From an uncultured Anaerolineae bacterium (lineage in GTDB: Bacteria > Chloroflexota > Anaerolineae > CAYNKW01), in the NCBI GenBank assembly GCA_964397845.1, contig CAYNKW010000004.1:1-44088 (forward strand): 44,088 bases of DNA, written 5' to 3'. Positions 14,719 through 43,785 of the stretch are shown here, in pieces. The number at the start of each line of letters is the position of its first letter. Position 1 is the stretch's first letter. The position numbers were made by a program, and so were the translations under genes. The notes under the pieces were generated by a model. That model saw only the letters and a program-made list of their open reading frames with translations. It did not search any database and was not told the DNA's origin.

Positions 14719-14720
14719 GC

Positions 14721-19808: not shown

Positions 19809-20070
19809 TTATTGCCCAGCGAACCGGGGACACCTGGCATTTCCGCCCAGCACGTCCGCTGTCTAACAACCGGTGCCGGGTCCTGACTTTGGCGGGCTTC
19901 GGCCCTGAGATCTACTCATGGCAGGGCCGCTTGGTCCCGGAAAATCTCGGCTTGCCAGCACCGTAGGGTGCGGAATATGAGTCAAGTGGTCAGGAAACCA
20001 CAGCCAAAGAACAGAGCAGAGCCATGTCGCGAGCGAGCCAGGGCCCGGTGTGCAGCAGTGGTGAAGAATC

Positions 20071-20477
20071 GTGCGGTGGCAGAGGATCACCACCCTGGGG
20101 CCAGGGGGGGTCTTTGGCCTGTTTACTGCTGGTGTGGCGCTGGTGGCGGGGGTGAGCATCTACGTGCCCAGGTCCACCTGCCTCGCTCAGGCCCTGGCCA
20201 TGCAGGTGCTGCTGGGCCGGTGCGGTCATCCGGCCAGCCTCCGCATCGGTGTTGCCCGAAGCGAAGCGAGGCGGGACGATTACAAGCTCACGCATGGGTG
20301 GAAAGCGATGGCAGGATTGTGCTTGGTAACTCCAAAGACCTGGCGCGCTTATACCCCGTTGCCGCCGTTGGAGGGAGAAAGGCCATCCGGGCGCGTTGTG
20401 ATCGTTCTTTGAGATCGACTGGCAAACCCGGCCATGGGTCCGGGGGTTTGCTCATTGAGTTCTTGATTTCAGGTTGA
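20071..20477 (+). pseudogene. Lasso-peptide B2 / transglutaminase-like (Transglut_core3) protein, frameshifted by a 5-bp tandem duplication
   Basis: Frame A reads ..YVPRSTCLAQALAMQVLLGRCGHPASLRIGVARSE. Frame B reads SEAGRLQAHAWVESDGRIVLGNSKDLARLYPV. GAAGC is duplicated at 20258-20262 and 20263-20267; removing one copy restores ..IGVARSEAGRLQAHAWVE... Confidence 0.65.
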
Positions 20478-22787: not shown

Positions 22788-22927
22788 TTGTCCAAGCCAT
22801 TCCAGCCAGACTCATTTTAACTGCTATATCTCGAAGCCACAAAACTTCCATCTGAGCGTGGCATCACATCGCAATGGTATCGTTGTCCATCTCACTCAGA
22901 GTGACCGAACCTCCAAAGGATACACAG

Positions 22928-23818: not shown

Positions 23819-23833
23819 GACTAGGAGGGAGCC

Positions 23834-24673: not shown

Positions 24674-24837
24674 CTCGAATCAGCGTTTATCGGCTATCAA
24701 CCGGCCGTATAGGCCCGTATCTGCTGCTACCTCGTCGTCTATCTTGTTGAGGCAGCGTGCAATCCACGAGGCAAATCCTGCAAGGTCCCGGCTTGGTGGC
24801 CGGGGCCCCATCATATCGGGGAAGCGAAAGGGCGGCC

Positions 24838-25851: not shown

Positions 25852-26116
25852 CATAGCAATTCTAACCGCTTTCTAACCAATTACACACGGAAACCCTGCT
25901 TTTTTCAGTCATAATGCCAGGAGATGGCGGCCTGTCTGCCTAGTACTACAACGTGGCTTTGTTCCAGAAACCCGTTTTCTGGCGCTTGCAACCTCAATCC
26001 GCCAGCGTTGCAGAGCCGATTTACCAACCAGAGCAGCCCCAGGGCAGGAGAAAATGGATTTCTTTCAAGTCGTTATGTCAAAATAATGTCGTAGTACCAG
26101 GAAAGCGAGGGCAATT

Positions 26117-27247
26117 GTGACCCTACCAGGATATTGGCGCTACAACCAGGAACGCTATGCCATGATCGGTCACTCCTGCGCACATTGTGGGACGCGTTTC
26201 TTGGCACCTCGATTGGTCTGCCCGAATTGCCGTCACGAGGTGACCCAACTGACGCAACACATCTTTCCCACCCTGCAAGTTCAGGCGTCCGCCGATGCTC
26301 AAGAGCCTGCATCTGTGGTCACTGTAATCATTCCGTCTTACGACGCCGCTGCTACCATCCAGGCTACCCTTTCCTCGATCGTGGCCCAAGACTTTGATGA
26401 ACCCTATGAAGTGTTCGTGGTAGATAGTTCTAGCGACGAAACGCCAGCGATCATCGCGCAAGAGTTTCCCCAGGTGCACCTCATTCACCGCGAGAAGAAA
26501 ACTGACCCCGGCACCGCCCGCAACCTGGCCATTGCCCGCGCGTGTGGAGAGATCATTGCCTGCCTGGATGCTGACTGCGTCGCCCCCACCGAATGGTTGC
26601 AGCGGATGGTCGCCGCGCAACGGGCAGGCCACCCTATCGTAGGCGGCGGCATAGAGAACGGCAATCCGGAGAAGATTCTGGCCTGGGCCAGTTTCTTGGG
26701 CGAGTTCCGCGAGTTCATCGCCGTCGGCAAACCTCGCCTGATGCGTCACCTGCCTACCTGCAACATCTCGTACCAGCGCTCGATTTTTTCCCGCTTTGGT
26801 GGGTTTCCCACATCGTTTTATCCACAGGAAGATCTGCTTTTTCATTGGCGACTGGAACAGCAAGGCGTCCCCATCTGGTTCGAGCCAGACATTCAGGTGA
26901 AACACATCCATCGAGCCGAGTGGCGGCCCTATCTGCAACACCAGCGCCGCATTGGACATATTACCGCTCAAGTGCTGGAATTAACCGGCGAGGAAGGAGC
27001 CTTCCTGGCTCGATCGCCGCTGTTGGCGCTGCTGGCGATTCCTTTCTTGCCTCTGGTCAAGTTCTTGCGCACCGTGAGCCACTTTGCCAGTTGGCGACCA
27101 GGGGTCATCCGGCAGCACTGGCCCGCGTTGCCGTTCTTATTGCTGGGGTTGTACGCCTGGTCCATCGGTTTCGTCGCCGGGGCGTGGGACGATCCCCTGC
27201 GGGAATCACTGTCCCCTCTCACCGTCGAGCAGAGTGTGTCGCAGTAG
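26117..27247 (+). CDS. GT2 glycosyltransferase with an N-terminal CxxC..CxxC zinc-ribbon extension
   Basis: GTG 26117 follows GAGGG (alternative ATG at 26162). CAHCGTRFLAPRLVCPNCRHE, then VTVIIPSYDAAATIQATLSSIVAQ .. VFVVDSSSDET .. CLDADC. The C-terminus is hydrophobic. Confidence 0.8.
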   Translation: MTLPGYWRYNQERYAMIGHSCAHCGTRFLAPRLVCPNCRHEVTQLTQHIFPTLQVQASADAQEPASVVTVIIPSYDAAATIQATLSSIVAQDFDEPYEVFVVDSSSDETPAIIAQEFPQVHLIHREKKTDPGTARNLAIARACGEIIACLDADCVAPTEWLQRMVAAQRAGHPIVGGGIENGNPEKILAWASFLGEFREFIAVGKPRLMRHLPTCNISYQRSIFSRFGGFPTSFYPQEDLLFHWRLEQQGVPIWFEPDIQVKHIHRAEWRPYLQHQRRIGHITAQVLELTGEEGAFLARSPLLALLAIPFLPLVKFLRTVSHFASWRPGVIRQHWPALPFLLLGLYAWSIGFVAGAWDDPLRESLSPLTVEQSVSQ

Positions 27248-27288: not shown

Positions 27289-29337
27289 ATGGAGGTTGTT
27301 AATTTGAGAAACTCGCCAAAAAATGAGCGAGCGATGAGTAAATCAGTTACTGCTTTGGTGTGTGATATCCCAACACAAACCAAACCCACCATCACCAAGA
27401 TCCGCAGACTGCTAGCAGTACAGGGTTTGCTTTTGGGACTGTATCTGTTATGGGTTGCAGCGATCTTGCCGATCACCAGACTGACCGATTGGCCGTTCAT
27501 GCGTTGGGACTACTCCTACCACTATTCACAGGTCGCCGAAATCAGCGACCTCATGAGGACGCAGGGTGGTTCCTGGGGCTATAGCGACCTCTTTTTCGCC
27601 GGTTATCCACTCGGAATCATATCCAATTTGGGCTCCAAAGGGTGGACGTGGTTCGTTCATCTGCTGTTATACCTTTCTGTACCAACCGCACTTGCTTTCA
27701 ACCTGTATGTAGTGCTGTGGGTGGTACTGACGCCGCTATTGATCTACCGGGCCTGTCGCTGGTTTGGGCTGTCGCCTTCACAGGCACTAGTAGCTACAAT
27801 TGTGGCCATGACCTACTGGTGGACTTCGACTCTTTACTGGTTCTTCTACTTTGGCCTGATCTCTTTCCTGGTCAGCGTGCCGCTAGCCATGTTCAGCATA
27901 GCCGCGCTGTGCGCCTACGTCCGGGATGGGCGCTGGTGCCATGGGATCGTATTTGGGCTGGCTGCTGCCGTTTGTTGTTGGGTGCATGCCCTGTCGGTCA
28001 TCTTTCTGGTTACCGGCTGCGCGGTTGTCTATTTAACCCGGTTCCGACGGCTCGCCTTGAGGCAGCATGGTGCGTTGTTTCTACTGGGCAGTATCGCCGT
28101 AGTGGCGCAATGGCCCTGGATGGGGCCGCTTTTGGCAGTCAGGAAGTGGTTTGTCAAGATCAGCGGGCATCTGCTTTACTCGCAGCCGCATGGGTCGAGC
28201 GCGTTGCACCTGGATATGGTCAGCAGTATACAAGCCAAGCTACCGCTATTACTGGCGTGCGCTGGTGCAGTTTTGGTGAGTGCATTTCTCTGGCGACGCG
28301 AGCAGAAGGTGGCGTGGCTTTTTCTGATCACAGCGGTAGCCTTTCTCTTCGTCGGTATGCTCATCGAGACGCCATTACACCGGCTGTTCCTGGTCGGTAT
28401 GGTAGTGGGTGTGTATGCTTGGTGGCGTCGGCGGAAGTTAGTGTTGATCCTGCTCTTTTCCATCCTGCCAGCGGTACTACTGTTTCTTGGGTACTGGGGC
28501 ACAACATTTGCCGTATTGCAGCCAGCTCGCAACGTCCCTGTCGCCTACTTGTGGCTGGCGATTCCCACAGCAGTAGGAGGCCACTATGTGTACAACGTGA
28601 TACGGAGCAGGTCACGACACCGCCATATACTGGGTGCTGGCGTCGTTCTTCTAGCACTCAGTATATGGCCCGTAATCCCTCCTCAACACGTCAGAGTCTT
28701 CGCCCAGGAACCTATCACCCTGATCCAGCCACCCAGCCAGGAAGCAGAAAAGCTGGTCAACTGGCTGCAGGCCAACACCACTAGGGAAGGGCGGATCCTG
28801 TTTGAGGACTCTCGTTCCTGGCTGGTTGAACACAATGCGTCAGCAGGATACCTGGCTTATACCAGCCAACGAGCCTTCATTGGAGGCCCATTTCCGTGGG
28901 GCGGACCCGTCGACTTTGTGGACGGGCGCCCTTTCGGTCATCCCATTGAGACGATGACAACTTCTCAGATGGCTGACTACTTTGACCTCTACAATATCCA
29001 TTGGGTAATTGTCCACTCCCAGGCGAGCCGAACCTTCTTCGACGCCCGACCAGACCTAGTTGAACCTATTGAAGAGTTAAGTTTTGCCCGAATCTACCTG
29101 GTCAAGATACCCGGCAACCACTTCCTGGAAGGGATGGGCCAGTTGACTGTCCGCAATCATCAAATTGAGTTGTGGGATTTGCAAGGCTCCGAGATCGTAT
29201 TGAAGTATCATTGGGTCCCCAATCTGAAAAGCAGTCCTGAAGTCGTTATAGAAAGAGTGATGGTTTCACCCGATCCTCATGGGTTTATCAAGATCATTGC
29301 ACCCCCTGATCGGCTGACCATCCGGGTTGCACCTTGA
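27289..29337 (+). CDS. Large polytopic membrane protein with a C-terminal extracytoplasmic domain; possible GT-C/YfhO-like glycosyltransferase or polymerase
   Basis: About 12 or more hydrophobic segments over roughly the first 450 aa, then a soluble ~220-aa domain. The first loop WDYSYHYSQVAEISDLMRTQGGSWGYSDLFFAGYPLG is reminiscent of YfhO/PTPS-related membrane proteins. Function is not established. Confidence 0.5.
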   Translation: MEVVNLRNSPKNERAMSKSVTALVCDIPTQTKPTITKIRRLLAVQGLLLGLYLLWVAAILPITRLTDWPFMRWDYSYHYSQVAEISDLMRTQGGSWGYSDLFFAGYPLGIISNLGSKGWTWFVHLLLYLSVPTALAFNLYVVLWVVLTPLLIYRACRWFGLSPSQALVATIVAMTYWWTSTLYWFFYFGLISFLVSVPLAMFSIAALCAYVRDGRWCHGIVFGLAAAVCCWVHALSVIFLVTGCAVVYLTRFRRLALRQHGALFLLGSIAVVAQWPWMGPLLAVRKWFVKISGHLLYSQPHGSSALHLDMVSSIQAKLPLLLACAGAVLVSAFLWRREQKVAWLFLITAVAFLFVGMLIETPLHRLFLVGMVVGVYAWWRRRKLVLILLFSILPAVLLFLGYWGTTFAVLQPARNVPVAYLWLAIPTAVGGHYVYNVIRSRSRHRHILGAGVVLLALSIWPVIPPQHVRVFAQEPITLIQPPSQEAEKLVNWLQANTTREGRILFEDSRSWLVEHNASAGYLAYTSQRAFIGGPFPWGGPVDFVDGRPFGHPIETMTTSQMADYFDLYNIHWVIVHSQASRTFFDARPDLVEPIEELSFARIYLVKIPGNHFLEGMGQLTVRNHQIELWDLQGSEIVLKYHWVPNLKSSPEVVIERVMVSPDPHGFIKIIAPPDRLTIRVAP

Positions 29338-31991: not shown

Positions 31992-32065
31992 TCACGCGGC
32001 TACTTATAGCGCTAGGTTCTGTGCCCTGCGTGATCAGCCGAACTCGAACGTTAGGAGATGTTGAC

Positions 32066-33649
32066 GTGAGAAAAGTACTCGTAGTCGGGTTGGACGGAGC
32101 ATCGTGGCGGTTACTGGATCCGTGGATCGAGAAGGGGCATCTACCCACTCTTGCCAGACTGGTGCGGCAGGGTGCCTATGGTACCCTGTTGAGCACAATA
32201 CCTTGTCGCACCAGCCCCGCACTTCCCGCCTTTTACACTGGAAAGAACCCTGGTGCTCTGGGCGTTTTTGATTTCACCATGTCGGACGGAACTCTTGTGA
32301 AGTCGCAGGACATCAAGTACAAAGCCATTTGGGATGTGCTGGGAGAGTTCGAGTACAAATCCTGCATCGTGAACTTGAGCACCATCTACCCCCCGCAGGC
32401 GATCAATGGCGTTATGGTATCTGGGGTCTGTCCATGCAAGGACTCCGAGTACACGTACCCTAAAGCGGTGCGAGCCAAAACCCAGGGTTTCCACATCGGA
32501 AAAAGCAAACTAAAAGCGATTTGGACTGGCCTTCGAGACGGTGACCGGTCGGCAGTTGAGAAACTCAAAACGCTTCTCCAGCGACGCTACTGGATTTTCA
32601 AAGAACTCGCTTTGGAGGGTGACTTTGACTTCCTGTTGCTCTGGATCAGCCAGACTGATGTTATTCAACACTTTTGCTGGGGCAAACCAACCCTAATGCT
32701 GGATTTTTTCCAGGAGGTGGACAGAGTTCTGGCCGACATGTTGGTTTCCTTGCCGGATCACGTTCTGCTGATCATGTCCGACCATGGGTTCAATGGTTTT
32801 TACGACAAGGCACTTCACACCAACACCTGGCTAATGCAGCAAGGCTATCTCAAAATGAAAGGTGGCAGGCTGGGGAACTGGGTCTGGCCCTGGGCTTACT
32901 CCTTGGCCAGCAAGCTTACGTCGAGCAAGCGCTTGTTGTCACTTTGGAAGCTGCTAATCGGAGGGCGTAAACAGACAGCAGCAAGACCGGCCACTCAATC
33001 TCGTCTCGCTCACAACTTCTACCGCAGTCTGCCCGGCGTGGATTGGAAAAGGAGCATCGCCTTTCTCGACCAGGATTGGGGCATCCGGATTCTGACCGAG
33101 AATGTCGCACCAGGGACGTACGACCGCATCATAACCGAGATCACAGGGAAGCTGAGGGTGCTCCAGGATGGGCGCGGCGAGAGGGTGATTAAAGGTGTTT
33201 GGCGCAGGGAAGAGCTATACGCGGGCAAGTATCTGAATGAGATTCCAGACATTGTTTTTCTGGCCACCAATGGATACGTGCCCAAGTGCGCTATAGTGGG
33301 AAAGGTCTTCCTCCGTGCGTCACCCTCACCAAAGATGGCCAGCCACAACTTTGCCAGAGATGGCATCTTGGCCGCCTACGGCCTGGGTATTGCCCAGGGG
33401 CGATGTATCACCGGCGCCGAAATTCTCGACCTGGCTCCGACTATTCTTCACATCATGGATATTGATGTTCCTGTTGGCATGGATGGCAGGGTGTTGGGGG
33501 AGCTGTTTGAGGAGGGATCTGAGATGGATAGGGAGGTCCGCTATCAGGATCTTGAGCTCTCCAAAAGGGATACCGCCTCGGCGGCGCTGCCTGAAGAGGA
33601 AGAGCAGGTCCTAAAGGAACGGTTGAGGGGGCTGGGCTATATAGACTGA
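32066..33649 (+). CDS. Alkaline-phosphatase superfamily protein (type I phosphodiesterase/nucleotide pyrophosphatase-like)
   Basis: GTG 32066, 8 nt after AGGAG. VLVVGLDGASWRLLDPWIEKGHLPTLARL .. IPCRTSPALPAFYTGKNPG .. LLIMSDHGF. Confidence 0.75.
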   Translation: MRKVLVVGLDGASWRLLDPWIEKGHLPTLARLVRQGAYGTLLSTIPCRTSPALPAFYTGKNPGALGVFDFTMSDGTLVKSQDIKYKAIWDVLGEFEYKSCIVNLSTIYPPQAINGVMVSGVCPCKDSEYTYPKAVRAKTQGFHIGKSKLKAIWTGLRDGDRSAVEKLKTLLQRRYWIFKELALEGDFDFLLLWISQTDVIQHFCWGKPTLMLDFFQEVDRVLADMLVSLPDHVLLIMSDHGFNGFYDKALHTNTWLMQQGYLKMKGGRLGNWVWPWAYSLASKLTSSKRLLSLWKLLIGGRKQTAARPATQSRLAHNFYRSLPGVDWKRSIAFLDQDWGIRILTENVAPGTYDRIITEITGKLRVLQDGRGERVIKGVWRREELYAGKYLNEIPDIVFLATNGYVPKCAIVGKVFLRASPSPKMASHNFARDGILAAYGLGIAQGRCITGAEILDLAPTILHIMDIDVPVGMDGRVLGELFEEGSEMDREVRYQDLELSKRDTASAALPEEEEQVLKERLRGLGYID

Positions 33650-33704
33650 CGCTGGGTACACTCCGAGCTCATCTACCCAAGTGGAAGTCGTCAAGAGGGG
33701 ATGG

Positions 33705-34790
33705 ATGTCAATTAAGAAACTTGTGCGTCTTCTTGCCTGGCGTCACTGGGGTCTGATCCGCTACAACTCGGTCTGGCAGAACGTGGCGGCGCTGTTCTAC
33801 GTCGGTCTGGCGCGTCAGTGGTTCAGCATGGACTACGTCCGCGACATGGGAGTGTTCCTTGTCCTCAGTATGACCTTAACGGCCTATGGCTATCTGATCA
33901 ATGACCTGGCCGACGTCGAACTCGACCGGCTGGCCGGCAAACCAAACGCATTTCACGGGATGAGCCGCACAAAAGCGTCGCAGGTGGTGGTGGCGGTCTT
34001 TGGCGTGATGGTGGCGTGCGGCCTGCCCTTCGCCCGCCGGCCCAATTTCCTGCCCTTGTGGATCGTCTGGGCGCTGGTGGCGACCTTCTATTCCCTGCCG
34101 CCGGTGCGTCTCAAGGAGCGCGGTGTATTGGGCTTGGTCGCCACCATCGCTGCGCAGCAGCCACTACCCGCTGCGATGGCCTTTGCTGCCCTGGGTCACC
34201 TGCGCACGTGGGGAGCGCTGGCTTTCATCGCCTACATCACCCTGCGGGGCATCTGCTCCGACGTGGGCCACCAGATGCGTGACCGGGAGCGGGATGAAGC
34301 CGCTGGTGCGACCACCTTCGCTGTCCGCCTGGGCCACGCGGCCATGACCCGCATCTACGGCCTCAGCTTGGAACTGGAGGCGCTCCTGCTGGGGGTTGTT
34401 CTCATCGTCTTGGTAGTAGACGTGCCGTCTGTCCATCTGGGGGGCTGGTCGGTCGCTCCCGCCTGGCCACTGCTGATGGCCTACCTGGTGCTGCTGTCGT
34501 TCACCCTGGGGCGTGCCTGGGTGCGGTTGGAACGTGACGAGTGGGTGGACCCTTACGATGAATCCCCTGAAGGTCCCCCACGCGACCTGCTGCACCTGAT
34601 CCACCATCCCTTCCCGACGGTCGTTCTCCCCCTCTACTTAGCCATCTGGCTGACGATCTACTATTGGCCTAATCTCATCTTCACCTTGGGGCTGGTCTTG
34701 CTGTACAGGTTGTACGATCCTGGTCGCTGGGCGGGGAGCTGGCCTATGCGGACACTGCTGGCCCGCCTGGGACAGCGGGAGAAGGTGTGA
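33705..34790 (+). CDS. UbiA-superfamily prenyltransferase (polytopic membrane protein)
   Basis: ATG 33705 after GAGGGG. First Asp-rich motif YLINDLADVELDRLAGKPN (NDxxDxxxD). Second motif QMRDRERDEAAGATTFAV. About 8-9 TM segments. Confidence 0.85.
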   Translation: MSIKKLVRLLAWRHWGLIRYNSVWQNVAALFYVGLARQWFSMDYVRDMGVFLVLSMTLTAYGYLINDLADVELDRLAGKPNAFHGMSRTKASQVVVAVFGVMVACGLPFARRPNFLPLWIVWALVATFYSLPPVRLKERGVLGLVATIAAQQPLPAAMAFAALGHLRTWGALAFIAYITLRGICSDVGHQMRDRERDEAAGATTFAVRLGHAAMTRIYGLSLELEALLLGVVLIVLVVDVPSVHLGGWSVAPAWPLLMAYLVLLSFTLGRAWVRLERDEWVDPYDESPEGPPRDLLHLIHHPFPTVVLPLYLAIWLTIYYWPNLIFTLGLVLLYRLYDPGRWAGSWPMRTLLARLGQREKV

Positions 34791-37700
34791 TGTTCGACGT
34801 CATCGTCATTGGCGCTGGGCCGGCCGGCTCGTCGGCCGCTTGCGAGATTGCCCGGGGGGGCTGGCGCGTCGCCCTGCTGGAACGCGGTGCGTATCCTGGC
34901 CAGCGCAATGTCTGCGGCGGAGGCATTGAGGGCGCGGACGTGGAGGAGATGGGCCTGCCGAACGACCTGATCCACAAGCGGATGGTGCGCCGCGAGCACT
35001 ACTTCCCCTGGGGCGTCACCACGCTCATTACCCCTCACGTCACTACCCTTCGGCGTGATCTGGACTGCTGGTTGGCCGAACAGGCTGTCGCCGCTGGCGC
35101 AGAACTTCTTACCCGGACCTGGGCCCGTGCTGTCGTCCGCGAGGCAACCGGGCGGGTGATGGTGACTGTCACCGACTTGACGGATCATCGCCAGATCACC
35201 CATCGTACCCGCTTGGTCGTCTTTGCCGACGGGCCGAACACGCTGGCCCCGCGTTCTGGAAACCTGGGCTTTGTCCGTGCGCCAACCACTGCTGCAGTGG
35301 GCCTGATTTACGAACTTGCCTGGCCGAACACGCTGTTGGATCACTATGAAGTTCACTTCGGAGCTTGCTTCAGCCCGTGGGGTTATGCCTGGGTCTTCCC
35401 TAAGCGCGATCTGCTCAACGTCGGCATCACCATCCTGCCCTCGCGGCGGGGCAGCCGTCATCTGGAGGCACGACTGCAAGCCTTCATTGAGAGTCGGCCC
35501 GACCTGCGCGAACGGCCGATTGTCCGCCGCGCTGGTGCTCACATTCCGGTTGTCCCGGCGGCGCGTATCTACGATGATTCGATGTTGGCCGTTGGAGATG
35601 CGGCAGGGATGGTAGAAGCGCTGACCGAAGCAGGTATCGCAAATGCCGTGGCAGGTGGTCGGCTCGCTGGCCAGGTGGCGTGTGAGGCGCTGGCAGTGGG
35701 TGATCTCTCGGCGGCCTTTCTATCGCGCTACCAGAGCCGCTGGCAGGCGACCTTCCGCTATCGAACGATTCGCTTCCAGTCGCGTCTCACCCGCGCACTC
35801 CTGCCCTTCAGCTGGCTTGATGGGAATTTCTACCCCAAAGTGATGCAAGTCCTGTTCCTGGGCGGCCAATTGAGCCGCAGGCAGAAACTGCGTCTGTTGG
35901 CCTACCCGGCGTTGAAGCCGCGCAAGCGATTGCTCTTGGGATCAGTGGGAGCGGGGGGGGCGAACCTGATGGCTGAGTTCATCTTGCATTTTGATGAGAT
36001 TGAGGAGGCCCGGCGCAACCAGGCAGGTGGCAAGGGCTACGCACTCGCCCGGCTCTGTCAGGCGGGGTTTCCCGTACCACCGGGCTTCATTGTTGCGACC
36101 GATGCCTACCGTGCCTTCGTCACCGCCAACGGCCTGGACACCCTCGTCGCCGCCGCTCTGGCAGATGACGACCCGGCGGCAGCCTCGGCACGTATGAGGC
36201 CAGCCTTCGAGGAGGTGAAAATGCCACCCGCCATCGCCGCTGCCATCCGCGATGCTTACCTGGCGCTGGGGGCGGACGAGGTGGCGGTCCGCTCCTCGGC
36301 CCTCGCCGAAGACGATGAGGCCGCTTCCTTCGCTGGCCAGTATGAGACCTCCTTGGGCATCGTCGGCTCCGACGCACTGCTGGCGGCGGTGCGCCGCTGC
36401 TGGGTCTCTCTCTGGAGCGAGCGGGCGCTGGCCTATCGCCGCTGCCTGGGTTTTAAGGGCGACGCGCCGGCAATGGCCGTCGTCGTGCAGAGGATGGTGC
36501 CTGCTGTTCAGGCTGGCGTTGCCTTTACCCTCGACCCCCTCAGCGGCCGTCGTGACGTGGTCGTCGTCGAGGCCGTCGCCGGGGGGGGCGAGGCGCTGGT
36601 AAGCGGTCGGGCCACGTTATACCGCTACGTCATCCAGCGGGGAAGTCCCTATCCAGATTCCGGGGATGGGGTGCTCGATGTTGCCCGGTTGGCGGCTGTC
36701 GTCCGCCTGGCGCAGGAGGTGGAGTCCTGGGCGGGTCAGCCCCAGGACGTGGAGTGGGCGCTGGGCGATGCCGGGCGCGTGCACCTTCTTCAGGCACGGC
36801 CGATCACCACCGCTTCAAGAAACCAGGTTTTTTCTGAAAAACCTGGTTTCTGCGAGGTTGTTACCCGCTGGACCCGCGACAACGTCGGAGAGGTGATACC
36901 GGATCCGGTCACGCCGCTCAGTTGGTCGGTGCTTGACCCCCTGGGCAACCGTTCTTTCACGGGCGTGTTGCGCCGCCTGGGCGTGGGCGATTACTCAGCC
37001 GCTGACCTGTTTGGCCGCTTCTACGGCCGGGTCTACTTCAACCAGACCTTCTTCCAGGCGATATTGGGCCACTTCTACTTCTCGCGCACCAGTTGGCAAG
37101 CCATTCCCCGGCTGGCACTGACGGCCCTGCGAGCATTCCTGTTGCTGCGCCGCCTGCCAGGGGAGAGCGAGAGAGCCATCGGAGCGATCCTGGAGTGGCG
37201 CCGCTCTGAGGAGGGGCTGAACCTGGCGGCTCTGACCCCGGCCGACGTACTGGACCGGTTGGCCGATTGGCGCCGCCTGGGCGCTGCGGCGATGGAGGTT
37301 CACTTGGCCATGACCGTGATGGGTGACTTGCTCTACCAGACGCTGGACAAACTGCTGGCCCGTTGGGGTGACGGGATGACCACCGTGGCTGCTCTGACGA
37401 CTGGACTCACGGGGGTGCGTAGCGCCGAGGCCGGTCAGGCCTTGGCCGCTCTGGCCCAACAGACTTGCCAGGATGACAATCTGCGTGCCCTGGTGCTGAC
37501 GACGACCCCTGAAGCGCTCCCGGCCCGGCTGGCCGAGACGGAGGCGGGACAGGCGATGTGGGCCCGGATCGAGGCTTTCCTGGCCAAGCACGGCCACAGC
37601 GCGGCACAAGAGTTCGAGTTGGCCACGCCTCGCTGGTGCGATTCCCCGGCGATCATCCTGAGTGCGCTCCAGGCGCAGGTGCGCGCCGGTGCGGAGAGGC

Positions 37701-38464
37701 CTGTTGCCGATCCGTCCACTGCTCGTCTGGCGGCCATCGCCCGGATCGAAAATCGGCTAGGTCCGCTGAAACGCTGGCTTTTCTGCCGCCTGTTGCATCA
37801 GGCGCAGATCTTCACCGTTGCCCGCGAGAATCTCAAGTACCATTTCGTCATCGCCCATAGTCACCTGCGCGATCTCTACCTTGCCTTGGCGGCGCATCTC
37901 GTTGCGGCCGGGCAGTTGACATGTGCAAAGGATATCTTTTTCCTGACCGCTGACGGGGTCGCGGCCCTGGTCGAGGGGAGGCTGGCGTCTGGTGAGGGCC
38001 GGGAGCGTGTAGCCGAGCGTCGCCAGGCGTGGGAGGCTGACCGAAGGGCCGTGCCGCCCTCGTCTTTCGACCAACTGACCGACGGTCGCCTGCGTCCGGT
38101 AGCGCCGTCCGTCGCGCCCGGCAGCGACGGCGGCCAGTTGCTGCGCGGATTGGCCGCCAGTCCTGGCTCATACATCGGGCAGGCTCGCGTCCTGCACACT
38201 CCAGCAGATGGCGCTGGCCTGGAACCGGGCGAGGTATTGATTGCGCCGGCCACCAGCCCTGGGTGGGCGCCCCTGCTCCTTTCGGCGGGCGCTCTGGTCA
38301 CCGAGATTGGCGGCACGTTGTCCCACGGCGCGATCATCGCCCGGGAGTATGGCCTGCCTGCCGTGCTCAACGTCGCCGACGCGACGCGCTGCATTCGCAC
38401 CGGTCAACTTGTTCATGTGGATGGATCCGCAGGCTTCGTCCGACTGCTAGAGGAAGTGACGTGA
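34790..38464 (+). CDS. Fusion protein: geranylgeranyl-reductase-family FAD oxidoreductase (aa ~1-375) + PEP-synthase/rifampin-phosphotransferase-like dikinase (ATP-grasp PPDK_N domain, ~400-aa middle domain, His-swivel PEP-utilizer domain)
   Basis: TGATG overlap with the ubiA-like stop. FDVIVIGAGPAGSSAA .. GDAAGMV; NQAGGKGYALARL .. VAVRSSALAEDDEAASFAGQYET .. VQRMV; C-terminal GLAASPGSY..GEVLIAPATSPGWAPLL..TEIGGTLSHGAIIAREYGLPAV. There is no C-terminal PEP/pyruvate TIM-barrel domain. Confidence 0.85.
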   Translation: MFDVIVIGAGPAGSSAACEIARGGWRVALLERGAYPGQRNVCGGGIEGADVEEMGLPNDLIHKRMVRREHYFPWGVTTLITPHVTTLRRDLDCWLAEQAVAAGAELLTRTWARAVVREATGRVMVTVTDLTDHRQITHRTRLVVFADGPNTLAPRSGNLGFVRAPTTAAVGLIYELAWPNTLLDHYEVHFGACFSPWGYAWVFPKRDLLNVGITILPSRRGSRHLEARLQAFIESRPDLRERPIVRRAGAHIPVVPAARIYDDSMLAVGDAAGMVEALTEAGIANAVAGGRLAGQVACEALAVGDLSAAFLSRYQSRWQATFRYRTIRFQSRLTRALLPFSWLDGNFYPKVMQVLFLGGQLSRRQKLRLLAYPALKPRKRLLLGSVGAGGANLMAEFILHFDEIEEARRNQAGGKGYALARLCQAGFPVPPGFIVATDAYRAFVTANGLDTLVAAALADDDPAAASARMRPAFEEVKMPPAIAAAIRDAYLALGADEVAVRSSALAEDDEAASFAGQYETSLGIVGSDALLAAVRRCWVSLWSERALAYRRCLGFKGDAPAMAVVVQRMVPAVQAGVAFTLDPLSGRRDVVVVEAVAGGGEALVSGRATLYRYVIQRGSPYPDSGDGVLDVARLAAVVRLAQEVESWAGQPQDVEWALGDAGRVHLLQARPITTASRNQVFSEKPGFCEVVTRWTRDNVGEVIPDPVTPLSWSVLDPLGNRSFTGVLRRLGVGDYSAADLFGRFYGRVYFNQTFFQAILGHFYFSRTSWQAIPRLALTALRAFLLLRRLPGESERAIGAILEWRRSEEGLNLAALTPADVLDRLADWRRLGAAAMEVHLAMTVMGDLLYQTLDKLLARWGDGMTTVAALTTGLTGVRSAEAGQALAALAQQTCQDDNLRALVLTTTPEALPARLAETEAGQAMWARIEAFLAKHGHSAAQEFELATPRWCDSPAIILSALQAQVRAGAERPVADPSTARLAAIARIENRLGPLKRWLFCRLLHQAQIFTVARENLKYHFVIAHSHLRDLYLALAAHLVAAGQLTCAKDIFFLTADGVAALVEGRLASGEGRERVAERRQAWEADRRAVPPSSFDQLTDGRLRPVAPSVAPGSDGGQLLRGLAASPGSYIGQARVLHTPADGAGLEPGEVLIAPATSPGWAPLLLSAGALVTEIGGTLSHGAIIAREYGLPAVLNVADATRCIRTGQLVHVDGSAGFVRLLEEVT

Positions 38465-39558
38465 GCCGCTACCCCATCGCTGCCTATCGCCAACTCTTCC
38501 CAGACAGAAGGGAGTTCGCACCCTTCGATCCGGCCGAGGATGGTGACCACTACCGGCCGGAGCCCAACTTTTTCGAGTGGTGGTACTTTGACGCTGCCTT
38601 CGAGGATGGCTCGTATCTAGTTACGACTTTACACTCGTCGTTGTATAATACTATTGATCACAAGCCGACGCTGGACTTGCGCTACTATCCGCCAGAGGGC
38701 CCTCCCGTCATCGCTAATGGCCGCTTCGATCGGACTGCGTACCGTGCCGCGCCGGATCGCTGCTGGGTAAAGATCGGTGATTGCCTGGCTACTGACGAGG
38801 GGGATCGCTACCGGCTTAGCCTGCGCCAGGGATCGTTGGCGGCTGAACTGACCTTCTGGCCGCAGTTGCCGGGCTGGAAGGCGGGCACCGGCCATCTTTT
38901 CGCTGACCCAGCCAGCGGGCATCACTTCGATTGGGCTGTGCCGCTGCCACGTGCCCGCGTCGAGGGAATGTTGACCGTCGCAGGCCAGCGGCGGGCAGTG
39001 GTCGGCAGCGGCTATCACGATCACAATTGGGGTAATCTGTATCTGCCCGCTGCCTTCAGCCATTGGACATGGGGTCGGGTGCTGGCGGGCGACTGGGTAC
39101 TCATTTTCGGCGATATCGTCGGGCGGGGGACATCGCCGGCCCACGTCACGCCGTTCATGCTGGCCCGGGACGACGAGATACTGCTGGCGACCGGCCGCAT
39201 TCACATTCACGGTGAGGAACCGGCGCAGGAGCCACGTACTGGTGCAGGCTACTTCCGTCGGTTGCGCCTGACGACGGTGGAAGGGCCGACGGTGGAACTG
39301 ACGCTGACGGCTTGTCGGACGATGGAGGCCCTCGATTTCGCTGTACCACACTTGCCTCTGGCCCGCCAACGCCACCTGCGGAGAGCAGCCGAGATCATCT
39401 TTTACCTGGCCCAGGGAAAGCCCCTCGTTGGCCGGCTGGCTGCCTGGCTGTTGGGCAAGGGCTCTTACCTGCGCTGGGAGGCCGATTATCGCCTTGACCT
39501 GCCCGATTATGGCGCCGTGGAGACAGGCCGGGCGCTGTACGAGGTGATGTTGCTGTGA
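38461..39558 (+). CDS. CrtC (hydroxyneurosporene synthase / carotenoid 1,2-hydratase)-like, AttH-like lipocalin-fold protein
   Basis: GTG 38461 overlaps the upstream TGA (GTGA). PEPNFFEWWYFDAAFEDGSYLVTTLH .. GSGYHDHNWG .. WTWGR. The ORF-track N-terminal 66 aa overlap the upstream gene and are rejected. Confidence 0.65.
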   Translation: MSRYPIAAYRQLFPDRREFAPFDPAEDGDHYRPEPNFFEWWYFDAAFEDGSYLVTTLHSSLYNTIDHKPTLDLRYYPPEGPPVIANGRFDRTAYRAAPDRCWVKIGDCLATDEGDRYRLSLRQGSLAAELTFWPQLPGWKAGTGHLFADPASGHHFDWAVPLPRARVEGMLTVAGQRRAVVGSGYHDHNWGNLYLPAAFSHWTWGRVLAGDWVLIFGDIVGRGTSPAHVTPFMLARDDEILLATGRIHIHGEEPAQEPRTGAGYFRRLRLTTVEGPTVELTLTACRTMEALDFAVPHLPLARQRHLRRAAEIIFYLAQGKPLVGRLAAWLLGKGSYLRWEADYRLDLPDYGAVETGRALYEVMLL

Positions 39559-39740
39559 TTTGAACACTCCCGTCGCCGTTTACGTCGGGCAGCAGCACCG
39601 CAACGTGCTTGACTACCTCACTGAAGCCTGTGACGCAGCTAAAAAGGCGTTACAGTTGTGTGATTTTAAGCTTAAATTCAATCTTTGCAAATAATCCAGG
39701 TTAGTTCATGGCTCAATTATAGGTATAGGAGGAGTGTATA

Positions 39741-42071
39741 ATGAAAAAAAGGATTATAATGTCACTATTGGTAGTATTGATATTAATAGCCTTTTACTGC
39801 AATTTAGCGTATGCTGATAAAAGGGATGATTTTCTCGATCGAAAAGATTTATGGTTTTTCCATTCCGCAGGAGTGGCGGATGAAGCTGAGATAATGAACG
39901 GATATGCGAAAATATTGTTATCTAATCCAAGCTCTAGTGAAGGAAGCAATTGCGGGATTGGTGAGAATCCAGGTCATTATCTAAACTTCACCTTTAGAGC
40001 AAGGATTAAAGCCCTCACCCCACTGATGCCCGGTACACACGGATGGGGATTATGGTTACAGCGTGATTGGACTGATGGGATAAACTGGGCTGCGTGGTTC
40101 ATGGAACAAAACGATCCTACAGGAGAACCAATTAACAATTTTTGGGCAGCAGCTACTATCAATGGTCCAGTAAGTACAATGCAAATGTTTAATTTGGAAG
40201 GTATCGTTAATAACCAGGAATGGCATACATACGAAATTAAAAAGACCGAAGACAGAGTTGAATTTTTCGTTGGCGGAAATCTCGTATTCCAGACAACCTC
40301 AGAAATACCAAACCGAATTATGGGAGCACGAACATGGAATGATAACTTGAATTATGAGGTGGCGGATCCTTCCAATTACTATTTTCGAGGATGGTCGGGA
40401 ACAAGTTCTCATGTTGTAGATTTTATGGAAATTTATGATGTTGAGCCCGGAATAAGCATTCCCCCTGAAGGAACGATTCTGCTAAGGGAACTACCTAATG
40501 AAATTGGTTCTGGCCAGCCACAGTATCTCTGGAAAAGTTATGAATATACTTCCCCAGGTGGAAAGACAGTAGTAATGGTAACAGCCAGAGCCGAGCAATA
40601 CATCGATGATATGAGCGATGACGATGATATTAAAATAGTCATAGATGGTATTGATTATGGATGGGATACAGACAATTCTTTTGATGGTAATACTTTAATA
40701 GGGAATAATGGAACACTTGTTTTTGTAAAAGATGAGAATCCCGGGCAGCATACGGTTCAGATTTATGGTGACATCACTCCCCTTCTCTATGATGTTACTG
40801 TTCTCGGAGTTGAAAATGGAGATATTATCTTGGAGGATATGCTCAATGAGCAAGCTCCTGGCGGTAATAATTATCTTTGGAAGGAGTACGAATTTACCAC
40901 TTCTGGGGAGGAAGAGGTAGCTATTGCAGTTTCTGCTACTGCCAACGATAATTATCGTTCTGACGACGATGATGTTCGAATAGTTGTAGATGGAGAGGAT
41001 TTTGGATGGGATACTCATGGATCTTTCGATGGTGATGAGCTCTACGGAGAAGCACGACTTCTTGTAATAAGGCGGAATTTATCACAAGGTAGCCATCTAT
41101 TACAAATATATGCCGATGAAACCCCAACTCTCCATGGTGTTGTCATATATGGGGCTACGCCAACGGCGACTTTGACTCCTACACCAACGGCCACGTCTAC
41201 CAACACCCCGACGCCGACGGCGACCCCGACAGACATACCGACGGCGACGCTCACGCCGACTGACACGCCAACGCCAATGGCGACGGCAACCGAGACACCG
41301 ACGGCGACGCCCACCAATACACCGACACCTACGGCGACCGCAACCGACACGCCAACAGCGATTGCAACCGAGACACTGACGCCGACAGCAACCCCGATCG
41401 ACACACTGACGCCGACGGCCACGCCCCCCGACACGCTGACACCGACGAGCACGCCGACAGACACACCGATGGCGACGCCCACACCGACTGACACACCAAC
41501 CGCCACGGCCACGCCGACCGACACACCGACGCCGACGGCGAGTGCGACGCCGACCCCGACCCCCACGCCGACCCCGGCCGACGTGATCGTGGACAACACA
41601 GATCCTGGGTTTTCGGTGATTGGTTCCTGGCTCACCTACTCCGGCTCCATCCATCCCCACTATGGAGCTGACTTTCGCTACGACGAGGCCGGGACGGGTG
41701 GCGAGTGGGCCACATTTGTCCCGGACCTTCCCAAGGCGGCCCGCTACGAGGTCTTCATCTGGTGGGGCACCGCTCCCACCGGTGCGACCAACGCTCCCTA
41801 CACGGTTCATCACCTGGGCGGGGAGACGACCGTGCGGGTCAATGTACGCGGGCCTATCGGAGGGGGAGGGGTCTGGTACAGCCTGGGAACCTATGACTTT
41901 GCTGCCGGGACGGCGGGCAGCGTCGTGATCAGCGACGACGCCGACGGCTACGTCGTCGCCGACGCCGTGCGCTTCCTGGAGGCCAGCTCCACGTCGCCCC
42001 AAACTGGCTTCACGGCTCCTCTCTGGTCATTCCTACGCTGGAGTCTCCTGCCCCCGGGGCATTTGAGGTAG
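39741..42071 (+). CDS. Secreted multidomain protein: ConA/LamG-like domain, two tandem ~116-aa domains, ~140-aa Thr/Pro linker, golvesin-C-terminal-like carbohydrate-binding domain
   Basis: AGGAGG before the ATG. Signal peptide [49 protein letters not shown] (ConA-like). C-terminal [55 protein letters not shown]. Confidence 0.8.
41157..41576 (+). repeat. Low-complexity coding repeat (Thr-Pro-Thr-Ala/Asp linker; ACN CCN ACN GCN periodicity)
   Basis: Translated [40 protein letters not shown]...[13 protein letters not shown]. Long antisense ORFs here are artefacts. Confidence 0.9.
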
Positions 42072-42237: not shown

Positions 42238-43785
42238 ATGAAAGATAAAATGTATGCACCAAAAGCCAAGGAAACTATTAGAAGTCTTGTAGGCCCGAGT
42301 AAACCCGATGAAAGCCTTTCAAAGAAAGTTGTTAAGGGCGGTTTTTGGGTATTCACATTAAGAGGGTTCAGTCATTTATTTGGCATAGCCAGGCTTATGA
42401 TTCTGGCGAGAATTCTGGCGCCCTCAGATTTCGGATTGATGGGAACAGCACTGTTGGTAATGGCAACCTTAGAGGCTTTCTCGCAGACAGGATTTCAGCC
42501 GGCTCTAGTTCAAAAGAAAGAAGACATAAAAGAATACCTCAATACAGCCTGGACAGTTTTGATTTTACGGGGGATTATTCTATTTGCCATTTTATATTTT
42601 GTTGCACCCTATGCAGCAAACTTTTTTAACGAACCAGCGGCGAAGAGTATAATTCGAGTTAGCGGATTTTCAATCCTACTTCAGGCATTTGCTAATATCG
42701 GCATCATCTATTTATACAAAGAATTAGAATTTAACAAACAATTTGTTTATGAATCTAGTGGCATATTCACCGACTTTCTTGTTGCTACTTTTGCTGCTTT
42801 TACATTGAAAAGTGTCTGGGCTCTTGTGTTTGGGTCATTAGCTGGAAATCTTGTAAGGTGCATCGTAAGTTACATAATACATCCATACAAACCGCGCCTT
42901 AATTTGGAATTAGGTAAGACAAGAGAGTTATTCGGTTATGGTAAGTGGATTTTGGGTTCGAGGATACTGGTTTTTACAGGTGCACAGATCGATAAAATTT
43001 GTGTTGGAAGATTGCTTGGTGCAGCAAGTCTTGGCTTTTATGGAATGGCATATCAAATCTCAGACATACCGGCCACTGAAATTACCTACGTAATTGGAAG
43101 GGTTGCATTCCCGGCCTATTCAAAAATCCAAGATCACCGAGTCAGGTTGCAGCAAGCCTATTTTCAAATAACGAGACTAACAATCGCAATTTCTGTTCCC
43201 ATTGCGATAGGAGTAGTCTTTTTGGCTTCAGACTTCACAAGGATATTTCTAGGAGAAAAGTGGTTACCGATGGTACCAGCAATGCAACTTTTTGCTGGAG
43301 CGGGATTGATCAAGTCTATTGTCTCTACGGGAGGCCCTTTATTTGCTGGTAGTGGACGCCCGAATTTTGGATTCTACATACAACTTATTAGAGGCTTAAT
43401 AATGATAGTCGGTATCTATCCATTAACGATTCATATGGGAATTCCAGGAGCAGCTCTATGTGTAATTCTGAGTGTGGTGGGAATGTTTATTATTTGGTAT
43501 CCATTGTCGCAAAATATTGCTCAAGCATCTTGGGATAAATATGCTAACACCCTTGGGCTTCCTTTGTTCAGTTCGTTATTTATGGCAGGAGGTATATATC
43601 TATCCAGATCATACTGGAATCCAATTCAGCAGCCTCTGATTCTTGCTATGTCAGTTTTCATCGGAATAAGTGTAATCAGTATTTTAACCTACATAGCAGT
43701 TATGTATATCTTGCAATTGTACTATCACGATTTTGACATTGTTAGTGACATTAGATTAGTATACAAATATTTAGTGGTAAAATAG
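42238..43785 (+). CDS. wzx: Wzx-type polysaccharide flippase (MOP superfamily, polysaccharide biosynthesis protein)
   Basis: 515 aa with about 12-14 TM segments. N-terminal ..VKGGFWVFTLRGFSHLFGIARLMILARILAPSDFGLMG is typical of Polysacc_synt proteins. Low GC (19/60 in the line starting at 42541). Confidence 0.8.
   Translation: MKDKMYAPKAKETIRSLVGPSKPDESLSKKVVKGGFWVFTLRGFSHLFGIARLMILARILAPSDFGLMGTALLVMATLEAFSQTGFQPALVQKKEDIKEYLNTAWTVLILRGIILFAILYFVAPYAANFFNEPAAKSIIRVSGFSILLQAFANIGIIYLYKELEFNKQFVYESSGIFTDFLVATFAAFTLKSVWALVFGSLAGNLVRCIVSYIIHPYKPRLNLELGKTRELFGYGKWILGSRILVFTGAQIDKICVGRLLGAASLGFYGMAYQISDIPATEITYVIGRVAFPAYSKIQDHRVRLQQAYFQITRLTIAISVPIAIGVVFLASDFTRIFLGEKWLPMVPAMQLFAGAGLIKSIVSTGGPLFAGSGRPNFGFYIQLIRGLIMIVGIYPLTIHMGIPGAALCVILSVVGMFIIWYPLSQNIAQASWDKYANTLGLPLFSSLFMAGGIYLSRSYWNPIQQPLILAMSVFIGISVISILTYIAVMYILQLYYHDFDIVSDIRLVYKYLVVK

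Follow-up and report, generated by a model that had tools for sequence, protein, structure and literature searches.

What would a bacterium make with a membrane prenyltransferase, a flavoprotein reductase fused to a dikinase and a relative of the carotenoid hydratases, all encoded among genes for glycan synthesis? The question is raised by a 44,088 nt stretch of DNA from an uncultured Anaerolineae bacterium (the window, to the whole of which all coordinates refer), in which three consecutive open reading frames (ORFs) encode a UbiA-superfamily protein (ORF A), a geranylgeranyl-reductase (GGR)-family domain joined to a dikinase of the rifampin phosphotransferase (RPH) type (ORF B), and a CrtC/AttH-like protein (ORF C). 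An earlier reading of the DNA letters alone (the sequence-only reading) had proposed that this trio builds or remodels a lipid for the adjacent glycan machinery. Our own interpretation, tentative and held with somewhat less than even confidence, is that a conserved glycoconjugate operon, with the trio as its lipid-building core, makes a dedicated isoprenoid lipid, used as a surface anchor or donor. All four domains retain intact, conserved catalytic motifs; fusions of GGR to the dikinase in the window, of UbiA to GGR in a related locus (L003) and of another flavoprotein to a dikinase in a second (L052) link the parts; and family 2 glycosyltransferases (GT2), a GT28 enzyme, a flippase, a GT-C enzyme (in Calditrichota) and secreted proteins are co-conserved with them. 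The proposed tie to glycan synthesis is borne out by synteny in about 40 loci, although the conserved unit is a module of about 21 kb (22874-43785) rather than the trio together with the whole glycan locus. We rate the system as lipid-linked glycoconjugate biosynthesis with an unprecedented isoprenoid-tailoring arm.

Four enzyme domains of the trio

The three genes lie on the plus strand where the sequence-only reading had put them, and all the motifs it had claimed were found; its four family assignments stand by Pfam and NCBIfam profiles and, for ORF A and ORF C, by fold matching (Table 1). Shine-Dalgarno-like purine runs are present 5' of all three starts (GAGGGG at 33695-33700, GGAGAAGG at 34778-34785 and GAGGAAG at 38450-38456). 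For ORF A we favour ATG 33705 over the alternative GTG 33681, because the N-termini of homologues match it and because of the first of these runs. The overlapping codons from which co-translation had been deduced are exactly as described, including the GTGA at 38461-38464 that joins the stop of ORF B to the start of ORF C. Such 4-nt overlaps are, however, ordinary in this window, with others at 4042-4045 and 20474-20477; they show tight operon packing and are no proof of co-translation. A promoter and terminator scan yielded no informative site within 33650-39740.

ORF A matched PF01040 with an E-value of 1e-15 (58.2 bits; cut-off 34.2). Its two Asp-rich motifs (N66-D67-x2-D70-x3-D74 and D193-x3-D197) are invariant in 16 homologues of 37-84% identity, and the alignment revealed a C-terminal extension specific to this UbiA family (DPYDES...RDxLHxIHHPFP). 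An AlphaFold2 (AF2) model (predicted local distance difference test score, pLDDT, 87.8) has the all-helical polytopic UbiA fold and was matched by Foldseek to AfUbiA (4tq4), DGGGPS (6m31), a phosphoribosyltransferase (PRTase, 8j8j) and UBIAD1, all with a probability of 1.00. The type of donor could not be read from the structure, as the Foldseek scores of DGGGPS, AfUbiA and the mycobacterial PRTase were indistinguishable. The nearest solved sequences in a phmmer search of the PDB were chlorophyll synthase (E 1e-7) and DGGGP synthase (E 3e-3), and the mycobacterial Rv3806c-type PRTase gave no match at E ≤ 1. The best NCBIfam matches were prenyl-donor enzymes, with every equivalog far below its cut-off. 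More than 180 homologues of the enzyme were found, and the identical UbiA sequence occurs on 24 contigs from many samples; the DNA therefore comes from a population that is abundant and clonal in the environment. The longest contig with this UbiA protein measures 44,088 bases, which suggests that the window is a complete contig. Some loci (L016 2688-3566; L037) contain an additional UbiA-family gene of smaller size that bears an N-terminal zinc ribbon; in the window, this zinc ribbon is attached to the GT2 at 26117-27247.

The dikinase part of ORF B (residues 395-1225) matched the ATP-grasp domain PPDK_N (PF01326; E 1e-69, 235 bits) and the phosphoenolpyruvate (PEP)-utilizers swivel domain (PF00391; E 1e-21, 76.6 bits), and Pfam found no PEP/pyruvate barrel (PF02896) in ORF B. 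Homologues carry the middle domain PF27448 (Rph_4th), and the best solved relatives are the rifampin phosphotransferase structures from Listeria (5hv1/5fbs, E 1e-69). The phospho-His motif GGTLSHGAIIARE contains His1180 (codon 38324-38326) and is conserved in 23 dikinases from both phyla in which the module occurs; the consensus among relatives is GGxLSHGAI[IV]ARE. All NCBIfam equivalogs remained below cut-off (RPH, 360 vs. 999 bits; PigC, 384 vs. 1300; RedH, 425 vs. 1350; PEP synthase, 300 vs. 740). The enzyme thus resembles RPH and the prodigiosin/undecylprodigiosin ligases PigC and RedH in its PPDK_N, middle and phospho-His swivel domains, its LSHGA motif and its lack of a PEP barrel, but differs from them in its scores (360-427 bits against cut-offs of 883-1350), in its fusion to a GGR-family flavoprotein and in its place in a lipid/glycan operon. 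The dikinases of L012, L027, L030 and L032 are divergent.

The N-terminal domain of ORF B exceeded the cut-offs of NCBIfam TIGR02032 (GG-red-SF; 181.4 bits vs. 158.8) and PF22578 (GGR_cat; 34.7 vs. 27), and its PDB match was the DGGGPL reductase 3oz2 (E 4e-24). Motifs that define the GGR family are the FAD-binding GxGxxG, the conserved Cys of CGG, and YxWxFP; the ORF B domain has GAGPAG at residue 9, CGGG at 43, YAWVFP at 200 and GDAAG at 270. The specific NCBIfam equivalogs were missed (BchP-ChlP, 142.8 vs. 343; DGGGPL reductases, 94 vs. 780 and 82.6 vs. 580).

The fusion of the two domains hangs on a run of eight G residues (G8), seven bases before CTGATG, and the in-frame ATG 35969 that follows aligns with the start of stand-alone dikinases. 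With one G fewer (G7), the GGR frame would end at TGA 35967-35969, overlapping this ATG; such a change would give a TGATG junction like that between UbiA and ORF B. The hinge suggested a sequencing error, and we considered that possibility. The G8 run and the 1224-aa gene call recur, at 99.97-100% identity, in contigs of eight independent assemblies (JGI, ENA and SRA samples), which rules out an artefact of a single assembly; the fusion is therefore genuine for this population. As a slippage-prone run, G8 might allow the population to alternate between the fused and the separate form. In L038 and L040, the nearest relatives (82% nucleotide identity), the two genes overlap and are not fused; the close homologues of the dikinase all stand alone, at 800-850 aa. 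Among the best 150 matches in a search of 1.84 billion representatives there was one further, independent flavoprotein::dikinase fusion (P0315; 1245 aa, 35% identity), encoded by the same kind of module at L052.

ORF C has no signal peptide and no transmembrane (TM) segment. Its match to PF07143 was marginal (25.4 bits; cut-off 22.5), with relatives at 23-29 bits, and it scored 25.9 bits against a cut-off of 400 for the NCBIfam CrtC equivalog. The WWYFD and HDHNWG motifs are present and conserved. The AF2 model (pLDDT 94.7) has the AttH/CrtC double β-barrel fold, and Foldseek matched it to AttH (2ich; E 3e-14, TM-score 0.64-0.72), kievitone hydratase (7a0q; E 1e-10), 25-phosphosteroid lyase (9fzn/9g4c; E 5e-11, TM-score 0.54-0.56) and fungal decalin pericyclases. 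CrtC and kievitone hydratase were also detectable by sequence profile; a family profile did not retrieve 25-phosphosteroid lyase from the PDB at E ≤ 10, and no sequence-level link to the lyase was found.

Residues invariant across the two phyla are W40, Y42-F43-D44, H58, W158, Y185-H186-D187-x-N189, W202-x-W204, Y336-x-R338 and E361. CrtC of Rubrivivax gelatinosus (RgCrtC) requires H239, W241, Y266, D268, W110, W283 and W285; Asp268 donates the proton to the terminal double bond, the carbocation is stabilised by the Trp residues, and the substrates are C13-C20 terpenoids with polar head groups and also lycopene, an overall range of C13-C40 (PMC4717167, PMC12402844). By spacing, W158, Y185-x-D187 and W202-x-W204 of ORF C correspond to W241, Y266-x-D268 and W283-x-W285: the W-x-W pair lies 15 and 17 residues past the Asp, and the upstream Trp lies 27 residues before the Tyr, compared to 25 in CrtC. 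Because these spacings match, with only the position of His239 differing, we read ORF C as a probable enzyme of carbocation chemistry on a terminal isoprene unit. It shares with CrtC and kievitone hydratase the AttH/CrtC fold, PF07143, the Tyr-x-Asp and Trp-x-Trp spacing and the lack of a cofactor domain. Unlike CrtC, it is coupled to a dikinase and a UbiA in a glycan operon: there is no crtB, crtI or crtD operon around the gene, and UbiA, dikinase and glycosyltransferase genes stand there instead.

The module across genomes

When one genome per GTDB species was scanned with UbiA as the query, 31 distinct loci were obtained, in Anaerolineae/Thermoflexia, Calditrichota and one Aminicenantes. 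With metagenomic contigs added, the module recurs in about 40 distinct loci in two phyla, Chloroflexota and Calditrichota. In these, the trio was found with the same set of two GT2s, a methyltransferase, a short-chain dehydrogenase/reductase (SDR) epimerase, a flippase and secreted lectin-like or glycoside hydrolase (GH)-like proteins; frequent additions in relatives are a farnesyl or geranylgeranyl diphosphate (FPP/GGPP)-type synthase, GT28, GT-C and RtcB. UbiA and the dikinase occur together in 31 of the 32 loci with enough downstream sequence, the Aminicenantes locus being the exception. The CrtC-like gene adjoins the dikinase gene in both phyla, with the order inverted between them.

The order in Chloroflexota is GT2, methyltransferase, (radical SAM), SDR epimerase, GT2 with zinc ribbon, (FPP/GGPP-type synthase), an uncharacterized protein, RtcB, flippase, secreted GH-like protein, (phosphodiesterase), UbiA, (GGR), dikinase, (two other flavoproteins), CrtC-like protein, and a Golvesin_C protein or GT28. 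In Calditrichota it is SDR, methyltransferase, GT2, double GT2, GT-C, prenyl diphosphate synthase, secreted protein, UbiA, secreted protein with a type IX secretion system (T9SS) sorting domain, CrtC-like protein, dikinase, GT28, methyltransferase and flippase. A distant copy of the module (L052; GCA_046128215.1) contains fusions at 17432-20392 and 10001-13738. In one Anaerolineales module (L013 11417-12790), a DDE transposase lies between the UbiA and flavoprotein genes. Where the CrtC-like gene is missing, the divergent dikinase is followed in three loci (L027 4841-6241, L030 13471-14820 and L032 13381-14811) by a protein of 450-477 aa without a Pfam match, which may be a functional replacement of the CrtC-like enzyme.

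In every Calditrichota locus that extends far enough, and also in L038 and L052, UbiA has an FPP/GGPP-type synthase gene as its neighbour. The L038 synthase is of the short-chain type, with cyanobacterial FPPS/CrtE as the best PDB matches (E 5e-85); relative to its first DDxxD motif, position -5 is a Tyr, and the Calditrichales enzyme has small residues there. L052 also encodes a Dxs::FMN_dh fusion (1-deoxy-D-xylulose 5-phosphate synthase plus the IDI-2-like family), which would supply isoprenoid precursors. The presence of short-chain synthases beside UbiA in relatives argues that the UbiA donor would be a C15-C20 (or slightly longer) prenyl diphosphate and not a sugar diphosphate, and that the product would be a dedicated short isoprenoid and not the general C55 carrier. 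Of the lipids proposed by the sequence-only reading, the novel lipid anchor is thus favoured, as a C15-C20 compound, and the remodelling of a long polyprenyl phosphate carrier less so.

Most Anaerolineae modules (L002, L004, L005, L009-L011, L014-L018, L038 and L040) include a gene of the RtcB family (RNA 3'-phosphate ligase family), which in a lipid/glycan operon may guanylylate a phosphomonoester. Upstream of it is a gene for about 350-385 aa with a faint precomputed "ScmC" match and no Pfam match, and the pair lies between the zinc-ribbon GT2 and the flippase (e.g., L038 2217-4779). Neither gene is present in the window. A literature search for "ScmC" returned nothing relevant. Archaeal-type ether lipid synthesis was set aside, since there was no geranylgeranylglyceryl phosphate (GGGP) synthase in any locus.

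A proposed pathway and its alternatives

We propose the following pathway, in which prenyl supply, UbiA transfer, saturation and hydration are assigned at the level of the enzyme family, and phosphorylation, glycosylation and export from the gene context. A short-chain trans-prenyl diphosphate (FPP or GGPP) would be supplied by a synthase, which is encoded in the cluster in many relatives and not in the window. With its two Asp-rich Mg2+ sites, UbiA would ionise this diphosphate and transfer the C15-C20 chain to a membrane-associated acceptor, after which the GGR-family flavoprotein could saturate at least one double bond, an optional step. In the CrtC-like enzyme, Asp187 would protonate the ω-terminal double bond, and the Trp-stabilised tertiary carbocation would take up water to yield a tertiary alcohol. 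The RPH-type dikinase would then phosphorylate a hydroxyl of the lipid via His1180~P, converting ATP to AMP and Pi; the most plausible target is the tertiary alcohol, the phosphoester of which would be as energy-rich as ATP. GT2/GT28, methyltransferase and SDR epimerase would glycosylate the isoprenoid phosphate, with the phosphate or the hydroxyl as the handle, and the Wzx/MurJ-type flippase would move the glycolipid outward, to serve as anchor or donor for a surface glycan or for the co-encoded secreted proteins.

A precedent for the tertiary phosphoester exists in Sterolibacterium, where a kinase phosphorylates the tertiary C25-OH of an isoprenoid side chain and a lyase expels the phosphate; the transfer potential of this ester is close to that of ATP, so that the kinase is fully reversible (PMC8449060, PMC11061730). 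A dikinase, at the cost of two anhydride bonds, would render tertiary phosphorylation irreversible, which could account for the pairing of an RPH-type with a CrtC-fold enzyme. A bolder version of the proposed pathway, in which the energy-rich tertiary isoprenoid phosphate takes the place of undecaprenyl phosphate and primes or carries the glycan built by GT2, GT28 and GT-C, would represent truly new lipid-carrier chemistry; we regard it as rather unlikely. In that case, the RtcB-like enzyme of many Anaerolineae may activate the phosphate by guanylylation.

Several observations weigh against the proposed pathway. The target of the dikinase was deduced from adjacency and thermodynamics, and could equally be the hydroxyl of a sugar or a head group. 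The residues of ORF C were mapped to RgCrtC by motif spacing and not by alignment to the RgCrtC sequence, and the equivalent of RgCrtC His239 is an invariant Phe156, two residues before W158. UbiA and the dikinase are found without a CrtC-like gene in a subclade of the loci (L012, L027, L030, L032 and L052), so that the dikinase is not strictly dependent on it. GGR is an accessory member of the module, which the ORF-by-ORF comparison found in about a third of the loci only and absent from many; where present, it is mostly a separate gene, it is fused to UbiA in L003, and other flavoproteins replace or join it in L004, L016 and L040. Finally, the module in the window is without the prenyl diphosphate synthase, RtcB and GT28 found in many relatives.

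We considered the possibility that the dikinase and the AttH-fold protein form a kinase/lyase tandem, in which the dikinase phosphorylates a pre-existing tertiary or allylic alcohol and the AttH-fold protein expels the phosphate to give an alkene, a cyclisation or an alkylation, the phosphate being a transient leaving group and not a handle for sugars. The model is the pair of 25-hydroxysteroid kinase (25-HSK) and 25-phosphosteroid lyase (25-PSL) of Sterolibacterium denitrificans (PMC8449060, PMC11061730), which likewise combines an AttH/CrtC-fold enzyme with an ATP-dependent kinase acting at the tertiary carbon of a terminal isoprenoid unit. The Foldseek match of ORF C to 25-PSL (9fzn, and 9g4c with phosphate and product bound; E 5e-11, TM-score 0.55) was level with that to kievitone hydratase, the invariant R338, H58 and H186 could bind phosphate, and in both phyla the dikinase gene adjoins and overlaps the AttH gene. 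Against this, it is CrtC and kievitone hydratase, and not 25-PSL, that are detectable by sequence profile, the CrtC-type acid Asp and Trp constellation is fully conserved, and the module encodes no enzyme that would first make the alcohol. Moreover, 25-HSK belongs to another kinase family, being an APH-like phosphotransferase that releases ADP, in contrast to the His-swivel dikinase of the window, and the Sterolibacterium pathway is catabolic and acts on steroid side chains. No lyase candidate was reported near the kinase gene of Sterolibacterium in the kinase paper. On balance, we consider a kinase/lyase tandem unlikely.

Remodelling of a general polyprenyl phosphate carrier, in which a C50-C55 polyprenol would be saturated, hydroxylated and (re)phosphorylated to a dolichol-like carrier for the GT2, flippase and GT-C enzymes, appears improbable. 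GGR-family enzymes saturate archaeal dolichol, the dikinase could act as a polyprenol kinase, and the co-conserved set includes a flippase, GT-C and an ArnC/DPMS-like GT2 that ends in a TM hairpin. The synthases of the clusters are, however, short-chain trans FPP/GGPP types and not cis-prenyltransferases, GGR is dispensable in many loci, and UbiA, the most conserved member of the module, would have no role. The co-encoded GT2 with C-terminal TM helices, flippase, GT-C (Calditrichota) and SDR sugar-nucleotide enzyme, and the Pro/Thr-rich linkers of the secreted proteins, do recall the three-component systems of lipid-linked periplasmic glycosylation (ArnC/ArnEF/ArnT, GtrA/B/C, Ppm1/PMT and mycobacterial decaprenylphosphoryl arabinose (DPA) synthesis). 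Those systems use the general undecaprenyl or decaprenyl phosphate, and have no prenyl diphosphate synthase, prenyl-donor-type UbiA, dikinase or CrtC-like enzyme.

A route like that of decaprenylphosphoryl phosphoribose (DPPR) synthase, in which UbiA would move a phospho-sugar from a sugar diphosphate (cf. phosphoribosyl diphosphate) onto a prenyl phosphate to make a lipid-linked GT-C donor, is very doubtful. In such a route, the alkaline-phosphatase-family enzyme would trim the phosphate, and the flavoprotein and SDR would remodel the sugar. The UbiA model is as near to the Rv3806c-type PRTase (8j8j; TM-score 0.55) as to DGGGP synthase, this clade has a phosphatase-superfamily gene immediately 5' of UbiA, and SDR, flippase and GT-C belong to the module. 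The sequence matches described above, both phmmer and NCBIfam, nevertheless point to prenyl-donor enzymes and not to a PRTase, the flavoprotein is not DprE1-like, and the UbiA::GGR fusion of L003, the FPP/GGPP synthase and the CrtC-like enzyme have no role in a DPA-type route. Just as doubtful is the tailoring of a pigment or quinone, for example an elongated, hydrated and glycosylated carotenoid made by a lycopene elongase-like UbiA with CrtI/CrtD-like oxidases and a CrtX/CruC-like glycosyltransferase: hydratase and glycosyltransferase pairs do occur in carotenoid glycoside pathways, in L004, L015, L016 and L040 the dikinase and AttH genes are separated by an amine oxidase (CrtI-like) and additional flavoproteins, several loci have GT28/UDPGT-type glycosyltransferases, and the cluster synthase is most similar to cyanobacterial CrtE/FPPS, but no locus examined has a phytoene synthase, a Wzx/MurJ-type flippase and secreted lectin/GH-like proteins are always in the operon (with GT-C in Calditrichota), and we know of no carotenoid or quinone pathway with an RPH-type dikinase. 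The remaining probability belongs to something not considered here.

The proposed pathway, making a dedicated short isoprenoid lipid, has partial parallels. In the pairs DGGGP synthase/DGGGPL reductase, ChlG/ChlP and MenA/MenJ, a UbiA enzyme likewise installs a C20-type chain that a GGR-family flavoenzyme saturates; the present module differs in being without GGGP synthase, tetrapyrrole and naphthoquinone genes and in the C-terminal extension of its UbiA. Moenomycin synthesis also places a short prenyl chain (C15, becoming C25) on a small phosphorylated head group before glycosylation, and involves an SDR epimerase. The likeness is conceptual only, since moenomycin is made by the TIM-barrel prenyltransferase MoeO5 and MoeN5, and no UbiA, dikinase, GGR or CrtC-like enzyme takes part. 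All enzymes of the module come from known superfamilies, each domain being a new, unassigned member, and the combination is in no described pathway; as the sequence-only reading had supposed, our literature search found no paper describing it.

If the proposed pathway is correct, Anaerolineae and Calditrichota, which are abundant in sediments and bioreactors, build a dedicated short isoprenoid phospho- or glycolipid, a new class of envelope lipid. It would also provide a physiological substrate for the large orphan group of RPH-like "PEP synthase" paralogues, extend tertiary isoprenoid phosphoester chemistry from steroid catabolism to biosynthesis, and offer lipid geochemists a set of candidate genes for isoprenoid biomarkers that are as yet unexplained. 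Should the tertiary phosphate itself prime or carry the glycan, this would be the first biosynthetic phosphorylation of a tertiary alcohol, and a new kind of glycan carrier or anchor common to Chloroflexota and Calditrichota.

Other genes of the module in the window

Table 1. Features of the trio and of the surrounding module, in window coordinates.
Feature	Position	Strand	Basis or detail
Sugar block of the module	22874-27247	+	Pfam; same-order homologues beside UbiA in Chloroflexota and Calditrichota
GT2	22874-23818	+	Pfam
Methyltransferase	23834-24673	+	Pfam
NAD-dependent epimerase/dehydratase (SDR)	24757-25851	+	Pfam
GT2 with N-terminal zinc ribbon and two C-terminal TM helices	26117-27247	+	Pfam, TM prediction
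Polytopic membrane protein, at least 8 TM segments and C-terminal soluble domain, 682 aa	27289-29337	+	Hydropathy; GT-C-like by architecture alone
Secreted protein, N-terminal domain of ~460 aa and repeated Ig-like modules, 842 aa	29463-31991	+	N-terminal hydrophobic segment, synteny
Cytoplasmic alkaline-phosphatase-superfamily enzyme (type I phosphodiesterase/nucleotide pyrophosphatase)	32021-33649	+	PF01663, E 5e-30
ORF A, UbiA-superfamily membrane prenyltransferase, 361 aa	33705-34790	+	ATG 33705, TGA 34788-34790
TGATG stop/start overlap, UbiA/ORF B	34788-34792	+	Direct sequence reading
ORF B, GGR::RPH-type dikinase	34790-38464	+	GTG 34787 or ATG 34790 to TGA 38462-38464
GGR-family FAD domain of ORF B, about aa 1-388	34790-35952	+	TIGR02032, PF22578, PDB 3oz2, motifs
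Fusion hinge: G8 homopolymer (35953-35960), CTGATG and in-frame ATG 35969-35971	35953-35971	+	Sequence
RPH/PigC-type dikinase part of ORF B	35969-38464	+	ATP-grasp PPDK_N, middle substrate-binding region, phospho-His swivel
ORF C, CrtC/AttH-like protein, 365 aa	38461-39558	+	Start GTG 38461
Secreted protein: lectin-like N-terminus, Pro/Thr-rich linker, Golvesin_C	39741-42071	+	PF25275, E 5e-32; synteny
Wzx/MurJ-superfamily flippase (Polysacc_synt_3)	42238-43785	+	Pfam, E 6e-81

MoeE5 was among the PDB matches of the SDR of the sugar block (E 1e-16). We also considered whether the two GT2s are polyprenyl phosphate glycosyltransferases. Their PDB matches were mixed (archaeal mannosyltransferase, chondroitin synthase, ArnC and DPMS, the last two at E about 1e-4) and are suggestive at most. 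Two GT-C-like enzymes had been noted nearby. One of them, a PMT_2 protein at 15799-17163, is supported by sequence and is the sole GT-C-like enzyme of the window to be so, although it lies outside the module; the other, the polytopic protein at 27289-29337, is GT-C-like in architecture alone, with no Pfam or NCBIfam match, no similarity to the Calditrichales GT-C and no homologue in the other loci. The stretch from 305 to 19000, with Wzy, Bac_transf and Wzz genes, is outside the conserved set.

The ~460-aa domain of the secreted protein encoded before the phosphodiesterase gene is conserved immediately upstream of UbiA in Chloroflexota loci (seen in L002, L005, L007, L010-L013, L016, L017, L027, L030 and L032), and its NEPD motif recalls clan GH-A hydrolases. 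Only in this clade (L038-L051) is the gene just before UbiA one of the alkaline-phosphatase superfamily. Relatives of the N- and C-terminal parts of the Golvesin_C protein flank UbiA, dikinase and AttH in both phyla; in Calditrichota, the slot upstream of UbiA is occupied by relatives of its N-terminus, one of them with a T9SS sorting domain. Neither the ~460-aa domain nor the N-terminal region of the Golvesin_C protein is covered by a Pfam family. The linker of the Golvesin_C protein (41040-41640) is long and Pro/Thr/Ala-rich (TPTPTATP...), and, owing to its repetitive DNA, the other strand has long spurious ORFs (41042-41635 and 41100-42002). Linkers rich in Pro, Thr and Ala are typical targets of O-glycosylation, and this one may tie the secreted proteins to the GT-C or lipid-sugar chemistry of the module.

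The flippase gene has a low GC content (0.40) and is not where the closest relatives have it, namely upstream of UbiA; the GC content is 0.45-0.48 around two minus-strand genes at 7323-10517. The locus in the window looks mosaic or rearranged. Farther upstream, a UDP-GlcNAc 2-epimerase ORF (14367-15854) starts ~350 nt inside the preceding GT2 gene (13504-14718); its true start is probably further downstream, since the Pfam match begins only at residue 148.

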